This document shows, piece after piece, positions 2,488 through 18,139 of a stretch of DNA of 64,000 bases. Every line of letters starts with the position of its first letter. Within the stretch, counting starts at the first letter, position 1. The stretch covers positions 18,108 to 82,107 of IMG/VR virus record IMGVR_UViG_3300048672_000430. One strand, written 5' to 3'. The notes beneath the pieces were generated by a model. That model ran no database searches. It saw only the letters and a list, made by a program, of their open reading frames with translations, and was not told where the DNA came from. This stretch comes from a virus. The position numbers and the translations under genes were made by a program.

Positions 2488-2763
2488 TTACCTCTTATAA
2501 GACATACCTAGTGACATCTTACTGGTATTACTTTTAATAACATCTAATACTTCATCTTGTTGCTTAAGTTTAGTACTTACATCTTCCTTAAGTTTACTTA
2601 ATTCTTTTTTAGTGATTTGTTCAGTAATAAATTCATAAGCTAAGTATAAGATAGCTACTAGTATAATAAATACTATATCGTATCCATTTGTTTGATATTT
2701 AAATGATTTTATAAAAGAAGAAATAAAAAGAATAGCAAGAACTACTTGGATCTTTGATTTCAT
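2488..2763 (-). CDS. Small membrane protein with two hydrophobic segments (possible lysis accessory)
   Basis: Two hydrophobic stretches then a coiled coil; AGGAG RBS. Confidence 0.55.
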   Translation of the reverse strand: MKSKIQVVLAILFISSFIKSFKYQTNGYDIVFIILVAILYLAYEFITEQITKKELSKLKEDVSTKLKQQDEVLDVIKSNTSKMSLGMSYKR

Positions 2764-2852
2764 ATAGGCTCCTAAATAATAAAAAGAGATGTGTCCGTAT
2801 CTAGCTTAATATAATGTACTTAGTACTCTAGTATCGACTAGTATCTCTAATG

Positions 2853-2863
2853 ATAGTTGTTAA
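2853..2863 (-). promoter_or_regulatory. Putative late promoter motif TTAACAACTAT
   Basis: Copy of the recurring motif, upstream of the terminase operon. Confidence 0.6.
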
Positions 2864-2951
2864 TTTATATACTGATTTTATTAAATGAACTTTAGACACA
2901 CTACTACCGCTTAACCGTGTAGCTTTTTTGCTTGTCTGTTTATATACAGCG

Positions 2952-2980
2952 ATTATACCACAACATAGTGGTTTTGTCAA
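2952..2980 (-). promoter_or_regulatory. Consensus sigma70 promoter TTGACA-17-TATAAT
   Basis: Minus strand reads TTGACA AAACCACTATGTTGTGG TATAAT. Confidence 0.8.
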
Positions 2981-2991
2981 GTTTTTTATGA

Positions 2992-3390
2992 TCACGGGTT
3001 AAATACTCGGATATCGGTCTTTAAATTATAACTAGCCATAGGAACAATTTGAACATGAACCCAATTTGTTGTTCCCTTTTCCATCCAAAGATTATACTTT
3101 TTAAGCATAGCACAATCATTTGCTATTAACCAATTGTAAAGCTCTAACTTCGGATCACTGATATCAGCAGCCTGTCCAAAAAGATGTTTCGACATTCTAG
3201 GATACTTCTTACTCTTATATATTCTTTCCATATCGGCATCATTTCTTAAACCTGAAGTTATTGTCATAGGTTTACCCCAAGCTACCCTAACTTTGTTTAA
3301 ACGATCCAATAATATAGTGAGATTAACAGTTTGTTCATCCGTACATTCAGATTGACTATGAGCCCCTAATAGTTCTTTCATCGAAATCAT
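2992..3390 (-). CDS. Peptidase M15 family endolysin
   Basis: ITSGLR, SKHLFGQAADI (SxHxxGxAxD), WVHV. Confidence 0.85.
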   Translation of the reverse strand: MISMKELLGAHSQSECTDEQTVNLTILLDRLNKVRVAWGKPMTITSGLRNDADMERIYKSKKYPRMSKHLFGQAADISDPKLELYNWLIANDCAMLKKYNLWMEKGTTNWVHVQIVPMASYNLKTDIRVFNP

Positions 3391-3668
3391 ATTGACTCCT
3401 GAGCCTTTTTAAGCTCTTTATATACTCTATAATAATCAAGATAAACAGGTTCATTATTCTCTTTACAGGCTTCAACATACACACCTATAATATAGATACA
3501 ACGTTCAGCAACCTCATTTAACTCTTCTATTAACGACTCTAACTCCTCTTCATACTCAAGAATTAAAGAAGGATCAGAACAATTAGAAAGCATCTCTCTA
3601 ACTTCGGCTATATCATCCATGACATAACCTAATAACTGTATCTTCTTATGAATAGAGGAATTATACAT
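3387..3668 (-). CDS. Hypothetical acidic helical protein
   Basis: ORF coupled to neighbours. Confidence 0.55.
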   Translation of the reverse strand: MYNSSIHKKIQLLGYVMDDIAEVREMLSNCSDPSLILEYEEELESLIEELNEVAERCIYIIGVYVEACKENNEPVYLDYYRVYKELKKAQESI

Positions 3669-3992: not shown

Positions 3993-4484
3993 CTATTTCC
4001 GTTTCTTCACCCACTCCATCGTTCTATCGTTCAGAGCATATACCGGCTGCACTAGATCCACTCCAACATAATACTGAGCAACAAAACCCTTAGCTTCATC
4101 CATGTTCTCAAAAACCCCAACAACGGTCTTATCCTTTCTAATATTCTCAATTACAACAAACACAGCAGGTATACTACAATTCACTAGGATCTTGGGTTTA
4201 TATTTTGAATAGCTAATTTTAGCCTTAACAACATCAAACCCGGCAGTAACATACTTCTCAACATAATACTGAGAGTAAATTTGTTTATATAACAACTCTT
4301 CTGTTTTTAATAAAATTTTTATATAAGATCGATCGCCCACTAATTCTGGAAAATCATCCAAAATTTGACCTATACGAGATTTTAGGTTATTTGCATATCC
4401 AACGTAGCATTTACTAGAAACAGGGTTAATAATGGCAAATACGCAACTATTAGGTAGACTATGGAGAGTATTGATGAAATTCAT
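3993..4484 (-). CDS. Degenerate GIY-YIG-like domain protein
   Basis: CVFAIINPVSSKCYVGYANNLKSRI resembles GIY...YIG...LxxR. Confidence 0.55.
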   Translation of the reverse strand: MNFINTLHSLPNSCVFAIINPVSSKCYVGYANNLKSRIGQILDDFPELVGDRSYIKILLKTEELLYKQIYSQYYVEKYVTAGFDVVKAKISYSKYKPKILVNCSIPAVFVVIENIRKDKTVVGVFENMDEAKGFVAQYYVGVDLVQPVYALNDRTMEWVKKRK

Positions 4485-4530
4485 TGTTGTTTTCCTCAGT
4501 AAAAATATAACATTACATTAGGTCGTTATG

Positions 4531-4542
4531 TATAGTTGTTCA
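4531..4542 (-). promoter_or_regulatory. Late promoter motif variant TGAACAACTATA
   Basis: One mismatch; upstream of the first leftward gene. Confidence 0.5.
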
Positions 4543-4664
4543 GTATTAGTGATTTCGATGAGGTGAGTAAAATAGGTGTGGTCGAGAATAGGTGTTTATA
4601 TACTTGAATTAGGTGGTATCACGGATGAGCTAACAAAGCCTTTCGTCCCGTCGGAAAGCCCATA

Positions 4665-4684
4665 GGGGGTAGGTAGGTGGGGGG
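4665..4684. other. G-rich tract, candidate genome terminus or packaging signal
   Basis: GGGGGTAGGTAGGTGGGGGG in an otherwise AT-rich genome, at the late/early divergence. Confidence 0.35.
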
Positions 4685-4727
4685 TGTTTGATATGCCAAA
4701 CTTTTGTATGATGTTGCGAACTTAAGA

Positions 4728-4943
4728 TGGCACGGATCTTGCAGGGATATGCAAGTATCATGCCGGCACGGTAATTGCTATATATGCAAGAAGTATGCCA
4801 AGTGCTAAGTGTCCAATATTGTAGGAGTTCTGGGGTAAGTGGTTGATATGTGATGAAATTATTTGGTATTGATGTTGCTATATATGCAAGGGGCATGCCG
4901 AGGTTTACCCGGTTGAGGGCAATTTTTTGGCATCGATTTTGCA
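4728..4943. promoter_or_regulatory. Array of seven sigma54 (-24/-12)-type sites in alternating orientation
   Basis: +4728 TGGCACGGATCTTGCA; -4750..4765 CGGCATGATACTTGCA; +4764 CGGCACGGTAATTGCT; -4785..4800 TGGCATACTTCTTGCA; +4864 TGGTATTGATGTTGCT; -4885..4900 CGGCATGCCCCTTGCA; +4928 TGGCATCGATTTTGCA. All are GG-N10-GC. Confidence 0.8.
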
Positions 4944-5099
4944 ATTAGACCTGCATCATTATATGCCCCAAAACCAGGAATTTTATTTTTATCCTTATAT
5001 ACAACGAAAATCTGTCATGCCTGAAAAATTTTTTTAGCGTCTTAACTCTATGTTATCGTTGGTGAATTTCAGATTTTTTAAATTATTTTTGAAGATCGC

Positions 5100-5128
5100 T
5101 TGCAATTATTTTTTAGATCGGTTAAGAT
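5100..5128 (+). promoter_or_regulatory. Early sigma70-type promoter TTGCAA-17-TAAGAT
   Basis: Correct spacing, A/T tracts upstream, followed by hairpin GGCAAGC/GCTTGTC. Confidence 0.6.
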
Positions 5129-5286
5129 TGTTTCAAGGCAAGCAACTAAGCTTGTCGGTAACGAGAGGTTAGAACATGGTAGCGGTGGTTGTAGTGATTT
5201 TTGTTTCATACTTTTTATTAGAAGTTGTTGGAATATAAAAAAAAGCTATAGGTTCCCGTTGTGGATAGTTTTTCAATATGTACTTA

Positions 5287-5298
5287 CATAGTTGTTAA
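5287..5298 (-). promoter_or_regulatory. Late promoter motif copy TTAACAACTATG pointing into the control region
   Basis: 11 of 12 match to the motif; no adjacent leftward gene. Confidence 0.45.
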
Positions 5299-5319
5299 AT
5301 CAACTTTAAAGGAATTGTT

Positions 5320-5574
5320 ATGATAAAAAGTAAAGAGCAGATGAAATTTGAAGCTATGAAAAGAAAACAAGTACTTGAGGCGAAAAGTAAAAATAACGCC
5401 TTTAATAAGGCGGGGAATGTTAAGACAAGTTTTGGAAAATGTAATAAAGAGTATTTAATTAACATGGGATTTTATGTTAAAGGAGAAAGAAATAAACCGA
5501 GTAAATCGGCATGGGTAGAAAAAAGATTAGATAAAAATATAATTGAAGTTGACTTAAGAAAAAAGTCATGCTAA
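5320..5574 (+). CDS. First early gene, highly basic hypothetical protein
   Basis: AAGGA RBS; Lys-rich; ends just before twister 1. Confidence 0.65.
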   Translation: MIKSKEQMKFEAMKRKQVLEAKSKNNAFNKAGNVKTSFGKCNKEYLINMGFYVKGERNKPSKSAWVEKRLDKNIIEVDLRKKSC

Positions 5575-5578
5575 TATA

Positions 5579-5639
5579 AAGTAAGTAAAGCAACTGAGAT
5601 CGGTCACAAGTCCGACTGAAAAATGCTGAGTGATTATTT
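5579..5639 (+). ncRNA. Twister ribozyme (type P1), copy 1; predicted cleavage U5586/A5587
   Basis: P1 AAGUAA/UUAUUU, U^AA, P2 GCA/UGC, T2 AC/GU, P4 UCGG/CCGA with loop U-CAC-AA-GU, GA, T1 CAC/GUG. Confidence 0.85.
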
Positions 5640-5877
5640 AAACAAAGTACCAAAATAGGTACTATACTCAAAGAACATGATTCGGGTAGACCCCAATCCT
5701 AGGGCTTTGAATGAAACACTCACGAACCACGGCGAAAAACGCTGAAAGCTTGACAATGCAAATTGTCTGCATCGTGTAAGAAAAATGCTTATGAACCACA
5801 AGTGATCGAAAAGTCGGTGGTTGCAAGTGAAGGCTACATCATGTAAATGATGAGAGATAACCATTAAGCATTGTTTT
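5587..5877 (+). ncRNA. 291-nt structured RNA released by the two twister cleavages (candidate circular RNA)
   Basis: Bounded by the two predicted cut sites; multiple helices, GCAA and GUAA tetraloops; no long ORF on this strand. Confidence 0.7.
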
Positions 5878-5929
5878 AAACATACAATGTCCTGTTGCAA
5901 GTCAGGCTGAGAAAATGTGAGCAAAACAA
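5871..5929 (+). ncRNA. Twister ribozyme (type P1), copy 2; predicted cleavage U5877/A5878
   Basis: P1 UUGUUU/AAACAA, U^AA, P2 CAU/AUG, T2 AC/GU, P4 CCUG/CAGG with loop U-UGC-AA-GU, GA, T1 UGC/GCA; compensatory changes versus copy 1 in P1, P2, P4 and T1. Confidence 0.9.
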
Positions 5930-5949
5930 AATATAAACCGAGGTGATTT

Positions 5950-6189
5950 ATGTATGAACAACATCGAATCGAATTGATTCGTTCAATACGTATTTACTTA
6001 TCTATGTATAAGGTATCTAAATTAGAGAATTATTTGGATTCTGCGGTCAGAGTAATGAAACAACTAGATGATCTAAATAAGGAAAATATAAACGAATATA
6101 AAAACCTAGTGAATCTTCAAAATAAAAGAGATGAGCTAAATAATTTCTTAGATCAAACAAATAACACTGTATTTTTAAAAGCTTCTTAG
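5950..6189 (+). CDS. Hypothetical early protein
   Basis: GAGGTG RBS. Confidence 0.65.
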   Translation: MYEQHRIELIRSIRIYLSMYKVSKLENYLDSAVRVMKQLDDLNKENINEYKNLVNLQNKRDELNNFLDQTNNTVFLKAS

Positions 6190-6198
6190 GAGTATGTA

Positions 6199-6324
6199 AT
6201 GGAAAAATTCTATGATCGATTTAATGAAATGGAATATAGTGATTATATTGAGGAAAATGATTTAGACTTTGACTATGAAGACGACGATGAGGAAGATCAA
6301 TTTATTTACACTGATAATTTTTAG
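6199..6324 (+). CDS. Very acidic 41-aa peptide (possible nucleic-acid mimic)
   Basis: MEKFYDRFNEMEYSDYIEENDLDFDYEDDDEEDQFIYTDNF; AGGAG RBS. Confidence 0.65.
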   Translation: MEKFYDRFNEMEYSDYIEENDLDFDYEDDDEEDQFIYTDNF

Positions 6325-6332
6325 AGGTACTT

Positions 6333-6437
6333 ATGACAATTTATGATGCAGTAATTGTGTTTTTCATATCAACTATTGGGCTAACAATGACAATTTGTTT
6401 CCTGGAAATGTTTACAATCTACGCAAAATTACAGTAA
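6333..6437 (+). CDS. Single-TM 34-aa peptide
   Basis: MTIYDAVIVFFISTIGLTMTICFLEMFTIYAKLQ; GAGGT RBS. Confidence 0.55.
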   Translation: MTIYDAVIVFFISTIGLTMTICFLEMFTIYAKLQ

Positions 6438-6977: not shown

Positions 6978-8438
6978 GTGAAAATGAACTTAGAATCATT
7001 TACTGTTAAGGGTACAATAATTCAAACAAATAAAGACTTATATGGTGGTGGATATGGTGGCACATATATTTATAAGATCGTAAAGAGTGCCAAATTAAAT
7101 CCAGATAAAACATTCCTAACTAATCAACCAATTCTTGTAAACGAAGACAACAGGCGAATATATCCTTATCTAACAAATTCTAGATTATTAGAATTAAATA
7201 TTAAAGAAATCAAATGTGAAAAAACAATAAAAGAATTTAATAAAATTTTAGTTGACTCGAAAAGGAAAAATGCCTTTAAAAATCTAACCAACGGTATTGT
7301 AGAAACTTTAGGAAGCGACCCTGAAATTTTTGTGGTAGATGAAAACGATAAAGTAATTCCTTCTTATGAATTTTTAAATGGTAAAGATAATCCAAATTTA
7401 ACAGGAACATACAAGGAATTTAAAATAAATGGTAATTGTGGTGCAAATGTAAATCAAAAAATGTTTTGGGACGGTTTCCAAGCTGAATTTAATACAGATG
7501 CTCAAAGTTGTTTAGCCTGGGTATGTGACTCGACTGTACTCGGTTTACAATCCGTTTTGAAAGAAGCAAAAAAGTATAATCCAAATGCAAGATTAACAAT
7601 TCAAACAACAGTAGACATTGATAAGAATGTTCTAGATAACGCTAAACCTGAACATGTAGAGTTCGGTTGTATGCCATCGTTTAACGTATATAATATGTCA
7701 GGAATCAAGGCAGATGGTAGGTCGGTATCATTTAGATCAGCAGGTGGACATATTCACTTCGGTATGAGTGACTTAACTAAAACGAAAGCTAAAAGATATG
7801 TAAAGGCACTAGATAAGATTCTAGGTGTTGCATGTGTTTCATTGTTTAATACTTACGACGACCCTAGAAGACGTACTATGTACGGATTAGCAGGTGAATA
7901 TAGATTACCTGCACACGGTTTAGAATATAGAACATTAAGTAATGCGTGGTTATCTCACCCGCTTATTATGAATCTAGTATTTGAAATGGCTAGAAAGGTA
8001 ATAGGTGCAGAAGAGGACGAACAAATGCAATTCTGGGATTCAACAGAAGAAGAAACTATTAGATGTATCAATACATGTGATGTTGATTTAGCTAGGGAGA
8101 TTTTAGCAAGAAATAAAACAAACCTGATTAATCTCTTAAAATCTATAAGTTCTATAAGTTATAATGAAAATGCTGAATATATCTATAAAATTTTAATGTT
8201 AGGTATGCAATCGATCATTGAAAATCCTGATGATATATCGGGTAATTGGTCATTCGAAAATCTTTATAAAGGTCATTGTGATGCAGACGGTATGCAACTT
8301 ATTACAATAGATAATATACCAAATTATAGATTATTAAAAGATGAGAAGGTTACTGCGATATATGAACAACTAGCATTTAATATTAAGCAATTAGATAATG
8401 ATGAGGAAACTATGACATTGAAAGAAGTTATGGGGTAG
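6978..8438 (+). CDS. phiEco32-like COOH.NH2 ligase type 2
   Basis: TLGSDPEIFV, FGCMPSFNVY, RSAGGHIHFG, RRRTMYGLAGEYR, GLEYRTLSNAWL. Confidence 0.88.
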   Translation: MKMNLESFTVKGTIIQTNKDLYGGGYGGTYIYKIVKSAKLNPDKTFLTNQPILVNEDNRRIYPYLTNSRLLELNIKEIKCEKTIKEFNKILVDSKRKNAFKNLTNGIVETLGSDPEIFVVDENDKVIPSYEFLNGKDNPNLTGTYKEFKINGNCGANVNQKMFWDGFQAEFNTDAQSCLAWVCDSTVLGLQSVLKEAKKYNPNARLTIQTTVDIDKNVLDNAKPEHVEFGCMPSFNVYNMSGIKADGRSVSFRSAGGHIHFGMSDLTKTKAKRYVKALDKILGVACVSLFNTYDDPRRRTMYGLAGEYRLPAHGLEYRTLSNAWLSHPLIMNLVFEMARKVIGAEEDEQMQFWDSTEEETIRCINTCDVDLAREILARNKTNLINLLKSISSISYNENAEYIYKILMLGMQSIIENPDDISGNWSFENLYKGHCDADGMQLITIDNIPNYRLLKDEKVTAIYEQLAFNIKQLDNDEETMTLKEVMG

Positions 8439-8441
8439 GTC

Positions 8442-8681
8442 ATGAATGAACTAAAGATTTTAATTTCAAATAGTGCATTGGTTTTAAATTACTACGATAA
8501 GGAACTTAAGAAATCTGCTATAAGAAATAAAGGCTTATATGATGTAAGCGATGAAAATCTACATAAAGTTTGTAATGATGTATTTAGTATGGTGATAGGT
8601 AAACCAACAAATTTTAGTTGGACGGATTGCCAAGCAATATTTGACTTAATAGAGCGTGATTATGAAATAAAGGATAAGTAA
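8442..8681 (+). CDS. Hypothetical protein
   Basis: ORF in operon. Confidence 0.55.
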   Translation: MNELKILISNSALVLNYYDKELKKSAIRNKGLYDVSDENLHKVCNDVFSMVIGKPTNFSWTDCQAIFDLIERDYEIKDK

Positions 8682-8918
8682 ATGAATAGATTAGAAATAG
8701 CAATGAAAATTCTTCAATGGGAAGGTGATGCAATCACTAAACATAGAAAGTTTGTTGATAACTTTATTAATGAAAATGAATTTAATGAAGTCTTAAAAGA
8801 AGCAGCATGTATAGAATTAGGTATTGAAGAAATCGAATTTGAAAGAATGAGCGATGAAGAATTTTTTAATGTAATGTTTGAATATTCTCATAACAATACA
8901 GTTATGGTAGCAAGCTAG
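8682..8918 (+). CDS. Acidic hypothetical protein
   Basis: ORF in operon, AAGGA RBS. Confidence 0.55.
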   Translation: MNRLEIAMKILQWEGDAITKHRKFVDNFINENEFNEVLKEAACIELGIEEIEFERMSDEEFFNVMFEYSHNNTVMVAS

Positions 8919-8924
8919 GTAATT

Positions 8925-9143
8925 ATGCAAATATTTAACGTGTCTGCTGAGGTTATAAAAAAACCTAAAAAATGTTCGCATTGTGATAAATTAAAAGAAA
9001 CAGGTTCAAGTATGTACTTCGGTCATACAATTCTATTCTCATTAAACAATAACAAAACTAAAGAGTTGCATTGGACATGTGAGGAATGTGTTAAAACAAA
9101 ACATGGGTACTTGACAGAATGTTATTGTATGGATTATTTATGA
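8925..9143 (+). CDS. Small zinc-finger protein
   Basis: CSHC and CEEC. Confidence 0.55.
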   Translation: MQIFNVSAEVIKKPKKCSHCDKLKETGSSMYFGHTILFSLNNNKTKELHWTCEECVKTKHGYLTECYCMDYL

Positions 9144-9274
9144 AAAGGTTTATAACAGAACACCACGATTTTTTAGTTGTGTTGTTAATTATGGGATTAT
9201 TCGCAAAAGCCCTGTTATTAATTTTTAATATATTAGGATCATATACTATAAATGAATACTTTATGAGGTAAATT

Positions 9275-9565
9275 ATGCACGCATTTGTAGAAGACATACT
9301 ACAATTCACTTTAAACAATAAGAAGCATCAACATTTTCAAGAAAAGGAAACAAGATATTCATTCGTTATATGTAATAGGAATATATATGCTCACGATAGT
9401 AGTGTGACATTACACAATGGTAAAACGGATATACATAGGAATTTTGATAGATTTAATGTGATTAAATCACCTCATAGATTACAGCCTATTTTTTTAAGTC
9501 GAGAAACTATGAGAGATTCTTATAAAAATAGACCATTTAGTGATTTGGTAAAAATAGTGGAGTAG
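9275..9565 (+). CDS. Small protein, Q-YxF family
   Basis: DILQF...RYSFVI...LVKIVE; GAGGT RBS. Confidence 0.6.
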   Translation: MHAFVEDILQFTLNNKKHQHFQEKETRYSFVICNRNIYAHDSSVTLHNGKTDIHRNFDRFNVIKSPHRLQPIFLSRETMRDSYKNRPFSDLVKIVE

Positions 9566-9568
9566 TAA

Positions 9569-9745
9569 ATGGAAAAAATAAAACATATTTATTCAAAAGA
9601 ATTAGGTCAATTATTTATGAGAATGACCGACGAAGAATATTTCGATTGGTTGAAAACAAACGAAGTAGAATATACTAAACCATTATTGGAATTAATAAAT
9701 GAAGATAAGGCTAATCTAAGTGATGAAGATTATACAGATACATAG
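9569..9745 (+). CDS. Acidic 58-aa hypothetical protein
   Basis: GGAG RBS; hand translation. Confidence 0.55.
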   Translation: MEKIKHIYSKELGQLFMRMTDEEYFDWLKTNEVEYTKPLLELINEDKANLSDEDYTDT

Positions 9746-9754
9746 GGGAACATC

Positions 9755-9919
9755 ATGATAATAATACAATGCGATAACGATTTATGTGAAGCCGGAAATG
9801 AATGGTCTGAACATATTAATTATCGATTTAGTAATGATTATATAGATTACGATGATTTCTTAAATAATGTTTCAAATGAAGAAGAATATAGAATAATATG
9901 GGAGGATACAAATGATTAA
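9755..9919 (+). CDS. Small protein, Q-YxF family (54 aa)
   Basis: MIIIQC...NYRFSN...YRIIWED; hand translation. Confidence 0.6.
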   Translation: MIIIQCDNDLCEAGNEWSEHINYRFSNDYIDYDDFLNNVSNEEEYRIIWEDTND

Positions 9920-11312
9920 TGTTGGATCAATAATAAAAATTAATGATGAACTTTGTCCAGAAAATGAACGCTCTAATAAAAGATTTCAATTCGGTGCTTT
10001 AAATTATATCGCAATTATGTTGGATTGGGAGTTTGAGGTAGTACGAGAATTTAAAGATGAGTTTCATGGTGACATGGTAGAATGTAAAATTACCAATAGT
10101 GATAATATCAAGTCAAACATTGTTCTTAGAACACAAGATACAGTGTTAGCTAAGTCAAATAAATTCAATTTAACTTATGAGATTATCGGTAAAACAGGAA
10201 GGTTTGATGCTGAGATAAGAGAACTCAAGAGAGAAGAAAATGATCTACTCTTAGTTCGTGCGGAAGAAAAAAGAAAAGGCACACCGATCACTGATAAAAC
10301 ACTTATTCAAAATTGGTCAGAAGTTAAATCAGTTAGAAATAAGATCAAGCGTTATCAAGAAAATACTGATAAAGTTTTTGTTGTCAAACATTCGTCTGGT
10401 ACTTACGAGATTGATTGTGCTGAGGAACAAATTCCAACAAAGCTTAGATCTTTAATTAGAAGTATGCGTGCTGATAGACGCAAAGTTTACCCTGTCACAA
10501 AAGAAATTGGTGGCGGTATGACATTAGAGAAATTAGGTAATGTCATGGTTAAACCTGGTAAGTTCCTGGAATTAAATGAGAAGTATGCTTTGAATATTAT
10601 TAAGGCACATAAGAAACCTACAACAAACGATAACTATGTTGGTATTGAAATTGAGATGTTATCACCTAAAAGTATTGAAGAAATGAATAAAGAGTTTATT
10701 AAGTCAAGATTACATAAGTATGTGAATGTTGGTACAGATGGTTCAATTAGAAGTGACATTAGTGGTGTTCATGCTATGGAATTGAGGGTATGTTTACCTG
10801 AAAACTTATTAGCTACTCATTTAAAAATGATTACAGAAGTATTACGTAAAACAGACTCTTATGCAAATCGTTCATGTGGTATGCACGTTCACGTTGATAT
10901 GAGAAATCGTGACCCTGAGCTATGTTACAGAAACTTCTTTAAAGTTCAAAATATTATGCTACAAGCTCAACCATTAACTAGACGTACAAACCAATACTGC
11001 AAACCTAGTACGATAGCTAGCAAAAAATTAAAAGACTTCTCAAGTAATGGTGATGATAACGTGAGACGACAAGCAATTAATACTGACTCGTATCATAAAA
11101 ACGATATGAAGACTATTGAGATCAGAGTACACGAAGGTGCTACTAAGTTCAAAGATATATTTAATTGGGTAAATTTCTTAGTTGCGACCGCTTCCCTTAA
11201 AAAAGATTTGGACGCACCTATTAATACTATTAAAGAATTAAGATCTGCTAATTTCGTAAATGAATTAGTAATTAATCATTTAAATGAACGTATTGAAGAG
11301 TATTCGGCTTAA
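9912..11312 (+). CDS. Putative amidoligase (Amidoligase_2 family) with N-terminal extension
   Basis: YVGIEIE, TDGSI, MELR, SCGMHVHVD, YCK, TIEIR. Confidence 0.85.
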   Translation: MINVGSIIKINDELCPENERSNKRFQFGALNYIAIMLDWEFEVVREFKDEFHGDMVECKITNSDNIKSNIVLRTQDTVLAKSNKFNLTYEIIGKTGRFDAEIRELKREENDLLLVRAEEKRKGTPITDKTLIQNWSEVKSVRNKIKRYQENTDKVFVVKHSSGTYEIDCAEEQIPTKLRSLIRSMRADRRKVYPVTKEIGGGMTLEKLGNVMVKPGKFLELNEKYALNIIKAHKKPTTNDNYVGIEIEMLSPKSIEEMNKEFIKSRLHKYVNVGTDGSIRSDISGVHAMELRVCLPENLLATHLKMITEVLRKTDSYANRSCGMHVHVDMRNRDPELCYRNFFKVQNIMLQAQPLTRRTNQYCKPSTIASKKLKDFSSNGDDNVRRQAINTDSYHKNDMKTIEIRVHEGATKFKDIFNWVNFLVATASLKKDLDAPINTIKELRSANFVNELVINHLNERIEEYSA

Positions 11313-11340
11313 TTATAATAAAACTAATATGAGGTAAAAA

Positions 11341-12558
11341 ATGTGTAAAGTTATGGTAATGACCGGGATAGAAAATAATGATCTAGCCCTGAGATTTATG
11401 AAAGCAGTAGCACCCAACATGTCAGTAGGTAATACCGACGGCATTGGGTACTCCGCAGTAAATTCTAAGAATCAACTGTTCATGGAAAAATGGCACGTTA
11501 ATAATAAGTTCTTAAATACGAACGATGTTGTAGACGCTAAGACTATTGAGGAATTAAAACCTTATGAGAATAGGATAGGTAAACTCCAATTAAATTACAC
11601 AAGTTATGGTGATGTAACAAGAGACGATCTTAGATCAGTGACTATGCACACCAGGTACGCAACATGTGGAAAAACATTTGAGAATACTCACCCATTTATT
11701 GAAAATGATATATCCCTTATTCATAATGGTGTTATTCAAAATTCTTTTACATTAGCATTAAATAAAAATTCAACTTGTGACTCCGAAAACGCTTTACAAT
11801 TATACAATAACTTACAAGTTAATTTGAGTAAGAAAAGTACAGACTATCAAAGTTTCCTAGATAAGTTAAAGGGTTATTGGGCATTTGCTTTTCTTGCAAA
11901 AGATTCTGAAGGTACATATCAACTAGATGTTGTTCGTGAGGGTGCACCATTATACTTTGCAAAGATTGAAGAAATCGGAGTTAATTGTGTTGTGTTTGCA
12001 ACAACAAAAGAAATCATCGAGATAGGTTGTAAAGAATTAGAGTTACCAGTTAGATCACAGATCTATCTACTAACTGAGTCTAACTATCACAGATTTAACG
12101 CATTAACAGGCGAGTTAATACTTAATAAACAACTCGAAGATTCTTTATTAAATGCTTCATCGTATAGCTATTCAAAAGTATTTAAATCAAATAAGACAAA
12201 GAAAAAAGAACCTTATCAACCACTAAATAATAACAACATAGATGAATACTATGACTACTACAATAGTCAAGAAAATTACAAGGATCTTACATCAGTAACC
12301 GATGAGTTCTTATTAGATTCGTTCTATGATATTAATGAGCCTTTAGTTGATAGACTTGATTCTTATGATAAAATGTTCGACACTGAGTATTTATCTAACT
12401 TTGAAGATCTAGCTATTAAAATCCGTGACTTCATAACAAAACAAGAATATAAAGAAGTTATTAGTTTTGCCGAAATTATCTTAATGTTAGACGCTTATAT
12501 TGCAAGTGAAAATATATCAGACCTTTATAAAGTATTTAGAAATAAACGTAGGGCTTAA
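11341..12558 (+). CDS. Class II (Ntn) glutamine amidotransferase
   Basis: Cys2 nucleophile, DGIG, HTRYATCG, NTHPF, HNGVI, DSE. Confidence 0.88.
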   Translation: MCKVMVMTGIENNDLALRFMKAVAPNMSVGNTDGIGYSAVNSKNQLFMEKWHVNNKFLNTNDVVDAKTIEELKPYENRIGKLQLNYTSYGDVTRDDLRSVTMHTRYATCGKTFENTHPFIENDISLIHNGVIQNSFTLALNKNSTCDSENALQLYNNLQVNLSKKSTDYQSFLDKLKGYWAFAFLAKDSEGTYQLDVVREGAPLYFAKIEEIGVNCVVFATTKEIIEIGCKELELPVRSQIYLLTESNYHRFNALTGELILNKQLEDSLLNASSYSYSKVFKSNKTKKKEPYQPLNNNNIDEYYDYYNSQENYKDLTSVTDEFLLDSFYDINEPLVDRLDSYDKMFDTEYLSNFEDLAIKIRDFITKQEYKEVISFAEIILMLDAYIASENISDLYKVFRNKRRA

Positions 12559-17637: not shown

Positions 17638-17934
17638 ATGATTAGTTATTTAAAAAGTTTATTCAGTAAAAACAACAAAGAAGATACCGAAGAGATTGAA
17701 GAAGCCCTACGTAAGTTTCATCATAGAAATTCACAGAGTCCTCCTGTATATCAAGATAATAATGTTAATCGAGAGCTAGAAGATGTTGTAACCACTGTAC
17801 TAATCAATGCAGCATTTGACAGCTTGACAAGTTCGGAAAGTTGTGATATACTAACCTCTTCGACTAGTGACACCTCTGATTGGTCTGGAGGTGGTGGTGA
17901 TTTTTCAGGTGGCGGTGCAGATGGAAATTTTTAA
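17638..17934 (+). CDS. Hypothetical protein with Ser/Gly-rich tail
   Basis: Ends WSGGGGDFSGGGADGNF; AAGGAG RBS. Confidence 0.65.
   Translation: MISYLKSLFSKNNKEDTEEIEEALRKFHHRNSQSPPVYQDNNVNRELEDVVTTVLINAAFDSLTSSESCDILTSSTSDTSDWSGGGGDFSGGGADGNF
17824..17852 (+). promoter_or_regulatory. Intragenic sigma70 promoter TTGACA-17-TATACT
   Basis: Near consensus with extended -10 TG; upstream of the RNR unit. Confidence 0.6.
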
Positions 17935-18139
17935 TGAAACAATGGATTCTGTAATCTATCAGTACGGTGGCAGTTCTCGTACAAAATATGAATTTACTTA
18001 TCGGGATGAAAGCAGTTATACTGATGGTCACAGTATAGATGAAAATGTGGCATATTGGTCAAGCACAAATAGCGATCTCCCTGACATTACACAAAGGTAT
18101 GCTTCAGTAATAAAGGTGTATAGAAAATGTTCAGTATAA
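17921..18139 (+). CDS. Small protein, Q-YxF family
   Basis: SVIYQY...KYEFTY...SVIKVY; start uncertain. Confidence 0.55.
   Translation: MEIFNETMDSVIYQYGGSSRTKYEFTYRDESSYTDGHSIDENVAYWSSTNSDLPDITQRYASVIKVYRKCSV

Follow-up and report, generated by a model that had tools for sequence, protein, structure and literature searches.

A predicted promoter-twister-RNA-twister module in a small family of freshwater phages

The biological role of twister ribozymes in bacteria and phages is still largely unknown (PMC6765202). The same work describes twisters that occur near each other and near phage genes, and proposes that they process polycistronic transcripts. Perreault et al. (2011, PMC3088659) have shown that clustered hammerheads on either side of genes in prophages cleave; they considered spliced or circular products and detected none. 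Theta ribozymes, which resemble that of the hepatitis delta virus, are found by phage tRNAs (PMC10879173), while in the Tornado system two twisters flank a cargo and leave 5'-OH and 2',3'-cyclic phosphate ends (PMC13622603). Here we analyse two twister folds, and the RNA that lies between them, in a stretch of 64,000 nucleotides (nt) covering positions 18,108 to 82,107 of the virus record IMGVR_UViG_3300048672_000430. This whole stretch is called the window below, and all coordinates are those of the window unless another locus is named. The source record comprises 82,107 bases, is estimated to be 96% complete and comes from a freshwater metagenome.

Both twister folds are real. We read them, with a probability of roughly 0.6, as part of a self-contained early module carried by a small freshwater phage family, in which a promoter, a twister, a non-coding RNA (ncRNA) and a second twister follow one another, and which would make a linear, trans-acting RNA. 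The features of the locus are the following:

5320-5574, + strand: open reading frame (ORF) of 84 amino acids (aa), rich in Lys and Arg, upstream of the cassette
5549-5577, + strand: candidate sigma-70-like promoter, with a -35 TTGACT at 5549-5554, a 17-nt spacer with TGn and a -10 TAATAT at 5572-5577
5579-5639, + strand: twister 1, type P1 without P3, predicted cut U5586/A5587, conserved G5628
5587-5877, + strand: predicted released RNA of 291 nt, between the two predicted cut sites
5640-5870, + strand: cargo, a structured ncRNA, from the alignment of six cassettes
5870-5930, + strand: twister 2, type P1 without P3, predicted cut U5877/A5878, conserved G5919
5940-5945, + strand: ribosome-binding site GAGGTG, 10 nt past twister 2
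5950-6189, + strand: 79-aa ORF, downstream of the GAGGTG site

As in the clustered phage ribozymes described before, same-strand ribozymes would segment one transcript, and twister 2 lies just before a gene start, an arrangement also seen in the viral contigs L116 and L021. Here, in contrast, the flanked segment is a conserved ncRNA with its own predicted promoter, and the two twisters are the only ones in the genome. Theta ribozymes likewise provide a phage self-cleaving ribozyme that adjoins an ncRNA (PMC10879173), but they belong to another ribozyme class, and in our locus ribozymes stand on both sides of the cargo, which is no tRNA. The first-pass annotation of this DNA knew of no described phage system of such a design, which was overstated: the 2011 account of clustered phage ribozymes already describes ribozymes flanking segments of phage transcripts (PMC3088659), and same-strand twister arrays are common in viral contigs. 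What appears to be new is the cargo class, the dedicated promoter-twister-RNA-twister layout, the restriction of twisters in this genome to the one pair, and a subtype of twister scored too low by Rfam. The literature searched gave neither a phage twister circle nor a twister-flanked ncRNA; similar layouts might be listed in the tables of gene context of the twister and hammerhead papers, which lie outside that search.

The first-pass annotation had proposed two type-P1 twisters in the same orientation, and the sequences at 5579-5639 and 5870-5930 parse exactly in this way. In twister 1, P1 is formed by 5579-5584 and 5634-5639, P2 by 5589-5592 and 5624-5627, and P4 by 5600-5603 and 5612-5615; the pseudoknots pair A5593-C5594 with G5610-U5611 (T2) and 5605-5607 with 5630-5632 (T1), and the conserved G-A is G5628-A5629. 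The corresponding elements of twister 2 are P1 5871-5876/5924-5929, P2 5880-5883/5915-5918, P4 5891-5894/5903-5906, T2 5884-5885/5901-5902, T1 5896-5898/5921-5923 and G5919-A5920. In each copy, four of four pairs form in P2 as well as in P4, six of the seven P1 positions are paired, and the N^A cut falls between P1 and P2. T1 consists of three Watson-Crick pairs (CAC/GUG in one copy, UGC/GCA in the other) and T2 pairs as AC/GU in both. The claim that the paired stems vary around a constant core is also borne out, since three P2, two P4 and two T1 pairs differ on both sides between the copies while the unpaired core is identical; the core elements UAA, U-NNN-AAG, AAA and GA agree with the upper-case positions of the Rfam consensus.

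Both copies share with the type-P1 twister (RF03160; P3-less as in Oryza sativa) the order P1-P2-P4, the N^A cut at the P1/P2 junction, a T1 of 3 base pairs (bp), a T2 of 2 bp, the A-A of L4, the AAA before the 3' strand of P2 and the G-A before T1. A short junction replaces P3, as in about 20% of twisters (PMC5408937). They depart from known twisters in the letters of T2 (AC/GU and not GC/GC) and of T1 (CAC/GUG or UGC/GCA and not CCC/GGG), and in a linker of 8 nt, not 5. A published twister descriptor permits 'NC' in T2 (PMC11662667).

A descriptor of the P3-less twister (UAA, 4-bp P2, 2-nt T2 strand, short junction, 4-bp P4, U, 3-nt T1 strand, AA, T2 partner, linker ending in AAA, GA, T1 partner) matches the window exactly twice, which places the cleavage-site U at 5586 and 5877; both matches are on the + strand and none is on the - strand. 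No full match occurs in 200 dinucleotide shuffles; the fixed bases with P4 alone are met 0.31 times per shuffled window, a rate that falls to 0.005 once P2 is added. A chance origin of both folds is excluded. As this descriptor was composed after both copies had been seen, independent support was sought.

This support came from other viral contigs. A strict 21-base twister pattern gave no match in them, and a relaxed 15-base core pattern matched at least 112 stretches. All 11 pairs of P2, P4 and T1 are present in at least 19 of these matches, spread over 18 loci that do not belong to this phage family, where about 0.002 would be expected by chance from (6/16)^11; the same P3-less subtype is present in at least 18 other viral contigs. 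A covariance model (R1) was built from 24 aligned twisters of other viral contigs, none of them from this phage or its relatives. In this alignment, whose rows were selected for pairing but without any part played by P1, pairing is kept in 95.8% of cells over the stems and the two pseudoknots, and two-sided changes occur in 15 of the 17 pairs. The share of paired cells is 88.5% for P1 and 98.6% for T1, with all three T1 pairs changing on both sides; the T2 pair is A-U in 20 rows and G-C in 4, a compensated change. Both copies align over model positions 1-61, copy 2 with a score of 54.1 bits (E 1.9e-16) and copy 1 with one of 52.4 bits (E 8.5e-16), and the model detects no further twister in the 64-kb window or in the whole 82-kb genome. 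Site-specific self-cleavage after U5586 and U5877 is predicted from these folds; about 94% of the natural twisters assayed in one screen were active (PMC11662667).

The cassette is conserved in related phages. A search with the 84-aa protein returned 17 proteins at E<=0.001, the window's own included, which represent 16 other homologue clusters. DNA was read for six other loci, which hold five complete cassettes and a partial one (L129). L012 is from IMG/VR, L127, L128, L129 and L130 are from JGI metagenomes, and L131, an 81.5-kb IMG/VR record, was found by the conserved cargo pattern. In each complete cassette a homologous RNA lies between two twisters of the same strand, at a distance of 260-304 nt from one another. 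The span 5587-5877 that the first-pass annotation predicted to be excised indeed measures 291 nt, and the five other complete cassettes keep the equivalent layout, with predicted released RNAs of 299, 260, 272, 303 and 304 nt. This conservation argues that excision of the RNA is under selection.

The Rfam twister-P1 model finds pairs of twisters on the gene strand in L012, L127, L128 and L130, and one twister in L129, where the contig ends before the second site. These nine matches score 37.5-66.9 bits (E 1.2e-13 to 3.2e-5), so that even the best of them stays under the gathering threshold of 67.2. The L131 record contains exactly two twister matches, which bracket the cargo, while two more distant phages without a clear homologue of the 84-aa protein (G003 and G004) contain no twisters. 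Several partner twisters in the relatives have a normal P3 and the standard 5-nt linker, and the position of twister 2 is taken there by Rfam twisters of 42-67 bits; the weak copy 2 of the window thus occupies the slot of well-scoring twisters.

The place of the module varies: in L131 (region 2975-3561, - strand) the cassette follows a small membrane ORF and an acidic ORF, and in L012 (region 2640-3544, + strand) it precedes both, an opposite order from which we conclude that the module has moved within the early operon. Twelve loci (L002-L013) are relatives by their amidoligase; Rfam detected no ribozyme in the six of them that were scanned (L002-L007), and L012 carries the cassette.

The cargo is, judged from strong covariation among its sequences, a new structured RNA class with six members. 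It is made of hairpin A (5646-5663, with the CAAAAUAG loop region), domain B (5668-5710, with a UAGAC loop), domain C (5721-5776), a conserved single strand UAAGAAAA (5777-5784) and variable 3' hairpins (5785-5866). About 155 nt at the 5' side of the inter-ribozyme RNA can be aligned in all six cassettes, the 3' part being formed by variable hairpins, and the invariant motifs are CAAMAUAG, UAU, AUG, UAGA, CC, a CGAAAAACG-like element and UAAGAAAC. RNAalifold predicts 25 pairs on the six-cassette alignment, 20 of which show changes on both sides with pairing kept. A test on these six sequences, which took its structure from the alignment itself, gave pairing in 94.0% of cells; the value is 70.4% for shuffles (none of 500 as high) and 21-45% for slid controls. 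Seven G-U cells place the RNA on the + strand. The predicted released RNA, 5587-5877, folds at -74.6 kcal/mol (z -3.68).

Moreover, an nhmmer profile of the cargo built without L131 finds L131 at E 2.3e-12 and nothing else real among the 149 loci searched. Rfam contains no family for the cargo at E<=10 for the window, E<=5 for five relatives and E<=1 for L131. In genome contigs, 17 stretches fit the cargo pattern, with a marginal best profile match (E 0.031); they are treated as chance, and a host or prophage copy was not found there. The 'Drum' motif was considered as a lead and set aside, no link to ribozymes being seen in the paper on this motif.

No + strand ORF longer than 27 aa exists in 5575-5949. 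The excised segment could still be a tiny mRNA for a micropeptide, M-[IV]-R-[VI]-D-x-[NS]-P, recognisable in four of the six cassettes, which we regard as very improbable. In its favour, an ORF begins at the aligned AUG in all six cargos, four of them with similar N-terminal residues, and codon position 2 is the least variable (0.354). However, codon positions 1 and 3 are equally variable (0.467 and 0.487), and the ORFs, of 22, 43, 30, 18, 10 and 19 aa, share no stop. A Shine-Dalgarno sequence is missing ahead of the AUG, whereas GAGGTG stands before real genes of this phage. Asp is followed by P, F, S, R, S or P, while the codon of this residue always stays complementary to codon 3, as the RNA helix requires. 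From these properties, translation of the micro-ORF is unlikely.

Upstream of the first cut, a TTGAC[AGT]-N17-TAnnnT motif ends 3-18 nt ahead in seven of seven cassettes, where 0.003 is expected per 20-nt slot from the overall rate of the motif in these sequences. In L131 the motif is a perfect TTGACA-17-TATAAT and in L127 it fits at 11 of 12 positions, with TGn; the motifs of these two loci lie in a different upstream context. The window transcript would start at about 5583-5585, that is 2-4 nt ahead of the first cut. With a start taken about 7 nt past the -10, the predicted leader is 2-11 nt long in five cassettes. Stem P1 of twisters is dispensable for cleavage and a single nucleotide can be cut off (PMC5408937), so very short leaders can be trimmed. 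The same motif, written TTGAC-N18-TAnnnT, is present at 14 sites of the window on the + strand and at 5 on the - strand; the other + strand sites lie at 17824, 20579, 21154, 25525, 28808, 34021, 36447, 36840, 38303, 46116, 46895, 50903 and 60376, and these motifs may be the phage's host-type promoters.

Downstream, the distance from the end of twister 2 to a strong ribosome site is 10-25 nt in four of the five cassettes with enough sequence; in L130 the site lies about 60 nt further from twister 2, and the L128 contig ends first. The gene that follows differs among the relatives, and the 79-aa ORF of the window has no relatives in viral contigs. All loci that carry the cassette also encode the 84-aa basic protein, either beside the module or not far from it. 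Among the records searched, the two with the cassette (G001 and G002) both have this protein, and it is weak or absent in the cassette-less G003 and G004. It belongs to no Pfam family, and an atlas search with a low-confidence model was uninformative. This co-occurrence makes the 84-aa protein a candidate partner of the RNA.

Taken in order, the module would comprise a sigma-70-like promoter, a type-P1 twister, a structured ncRNA of about 200-240 nt, a second type-P1 twister and the ribosome site of the next gene. Twister 1 would trim the upstream RNA, be it mRNA read through from the 84-aa gene or a leader, a few nt long, that starts at the module's own promoter; it would leave a 5'-OH and stay attached as a folded 5' end. 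The cut by twister 2, rather than a terminator, would define the 3' end, which would carry a 2',3'-cyclic phosphate. As no terminator-like site is found on the + strand in 4400-6400, transcription can run on past twister 2, and the body of this ribozyme would become a folded 5'-OH leader of the downstream mRNA. The product would be a linear RNA of 260-304 nt (291 nt here) in which the body of twister 1 is followed by the cargo and then by the 5' strand of twister 2 (7 nt). Such defined ends should resist end-dependent decay, and the RNA would function in trans during early infection, perhaps in concert with the small basic protein encoded next to it.

Several observations weigh against this reading. 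At gathering scores, Rfam gives no match in the window. The first-pass annotation expected two twister-P1 hits; with E-value thresholds RF03160 does recover copy 1 (38.2 bits, E 9.8e-7, with P3 deleted, under the 67.2 gathering threshold), but copy 2 yields no full-length match, only a local one of 11.4 bits (E 2.2). The T2 letters are AC/GU where GC/GC is conserved, and the cargo ORF opens at a conserved AUG in six of six cases. As to the promoter, five of the seven cassettes have a -35 TTGAC that shares bases with conserved Ile-Asp codons of the ORF upstream, so its conservation in those five could be a coding effect, and the host may not use sigma-70 promoters. In L128 and L131 the predicted start falls at or just after the cut, and twister 1 would therefore be idle there on transcripts from the module's own promoter. 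The comparison covers six complete cassettes, with 11 further homologue clusters outside it. Finally, a search of sequencing runs found the cassette stretch in one DNA run, probably the source sample, and in no RNA run.

The low Rfam scores are explained by the absence of P3 and by the altered pseudoknot letters rather than by a broken structure. P3-less twisters with a T2 A-U pair and an 8-nt linker lie about 29 bits or more below the Rfam twister-P1 threshold.

The first-pass annotation had proposed a different fate for the 291-nt RNA, which host RtcB would join head to tail into a stable circular RNA, as a natural Tornado; the joint would read GCATTGTTTT followed directly by AAAGCAACTG. RtcB does join 5'-OH and 2',3'-cyclic phosphate ends such as twisters leave (PMC13622603), and the first 7 nt of the window RNA can pair with the last 7, L012 having a 7-bp end helix as well. 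However, the core of twister 1 lies wholly inside 5587-5877, and ligation would restore the U-A junction before it; as P1 is not needed for cleavage (PMC5408937), the circle should re-open. Tornado, as published, discards both ribozymes and has a designed ligation stem (PMC13622603), whereas here twister 1 is kept and no such stem appears to be conserved. End duplexes of -4.0 to -9.4 kcal/mol form in all six cassettes, but they are weak, differ in register and are largely AAA/UUU. The 5' ribozyme of Tornado is a P3-type twister.

Two other ways of holding the ends together were tried and rejected. A 16-bp 'splint' helix, in which the tail pairs with the 3' half of twister 1, appears in the window fold, but it is no better than shuffles and is absent from the relatives (fraction of shuffles at least as good: 0.106 in the window, and 0.186, 0.348, 0.140, 0.870 and 0.668 in the others). 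A hybrid twister at the ligated junction fails as well, the P1 strand of twister 2 not being complementary to the 3' strand of twister 1 P1 in five of five cassettes inspected by eye, L131 left out.

The first-pass annotation was right that no ligase is seen: neither RtcB nor an RNA ligase was found in the phage. The published work on hammerhead clusters in phages looked for circles and saw none (PMC3088659). With twister 1 retained, the splint not conserved and no phage ligase found, circularisation is unproven and the design argues against it; we consider a stable circle decidedly unlikely. A broader proposal, in which the ribozyme-made ends are themselves functional in an effector RNA, appears quite unlikely. 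Twister 1 could then re-open an RtcB circle, as a cleave-and-ligate switch, or the cyclic-phosphate end could be read by a host RNA-repair sensor that acts on the upstream boxes of sigma-54 type, which are conserved.

The host sensor RtcR responds to RNA ends bearing a 2',3'-cyclic phosphate. In the specific form of this idea, which we find extremely improbable, the released RNA would trigger a host RtcR-type sigma-54 activator, which in turn would fire sigma-54-type boxes of the phage. In the window, L012, L127 and L131, the cassette does have clusters of GGCAYR-N4-TTGCW boxes on both strands about 700-1400 nt ahead of it, and host factors would be needed, neither a sigma-54 factor nor a sigma-54 activator having been found in the phage. 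Against it, this is pure co-occurrence in four related phages, where boxes and cassette could be co-inherited. The clusters (window 4729-4943, L012 2059-2145, L127 1736-1841, L131 4232-4341) are situated in a divergent control region; the window has five strict boxes and, by eye, TGGTATTGATGTTGCT at about 4864 and TGGCATCGATTTTGCA at about 4928, and the relatives have four or five each.

Plain punctuation of the operon is another reading, and an unlikely one: the twisters would merely part the upstream and downstream mRNAs, and the RNA between them would be a cis leader or spacer, which might for instance tune the next gene or twister 2 and is then discarded. Processing of polycistronic phage transcripts is indeed what has been suggested in published work (PMC6765202; PMC3088659). 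Twister 2 sits 10 nt ahead of a ribosome site, and in other viral contigs same-strand twisters occupy gaps between small consecutive genes, directly before the next start. Arrays of 2-7 same-strand P3-less twisters were observed in L116 (3913-6303, six in 2.4 kb), L021 (1434-10196, seven in 9 kb), L121 and L064, a layout which would cut the operon into single-gene messages. In our locus, the segment between the ribozymes is non-coding, and only twister 2 sits just before a gene. Were this RNA a spacer, 25 covarying pairs and a set of invariant loops would not persist among phages whose neighbouring protein is only about 50% identical. Furthermore, the downstream gene varies among relatives, and the L131 module follows different genes. 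The module has its own predicted promoter, and the genome is without any other twister; twisters therefore do not punctuate its operon in general.

The promoter-twister-RNA-twister module is our preferred reading. The window also encodes a large terminase, a ribonucleotide reductase, a helicase-primase, a DNA polymerase and an amidoligase/amidotransferase set. The terminase is only about 24% identical to those of Vibrio T5-like phages, so no host is assigned. BLAST of 5300-6200 against a phage collection gave no match, and no tRNA or tmRNA was detected in the window. Downstream of the cassette, a COOH-NH2 ligase, an amidoligase and a glutamine amidotransferase follow in a row (6978-12558). A 163-aa ORF at 3993-4484 on the - strand shows a weak N-terminal match to GIY-YIG nucleases (21.4 bits against a cut-off of 22.6, E 3.2e-4).

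Both the P3-less twister subtype and the cargo RNA are things that present RNA catalogues lack: the cargo class is absent from them, and the subtype is missed. Indeed, a dedicated model recovers P3-less twisters at E of about 1e-16, so catalogue scans probably under-count phage twisters. Finally, the sole two twisters in each of two near-complete genomes flank one conserved ncRNA that has a predicted promoter of its own, which points to one identifiable job for these ribozymes, and this job could be tested with a few point mutations (G5628 and G5919).

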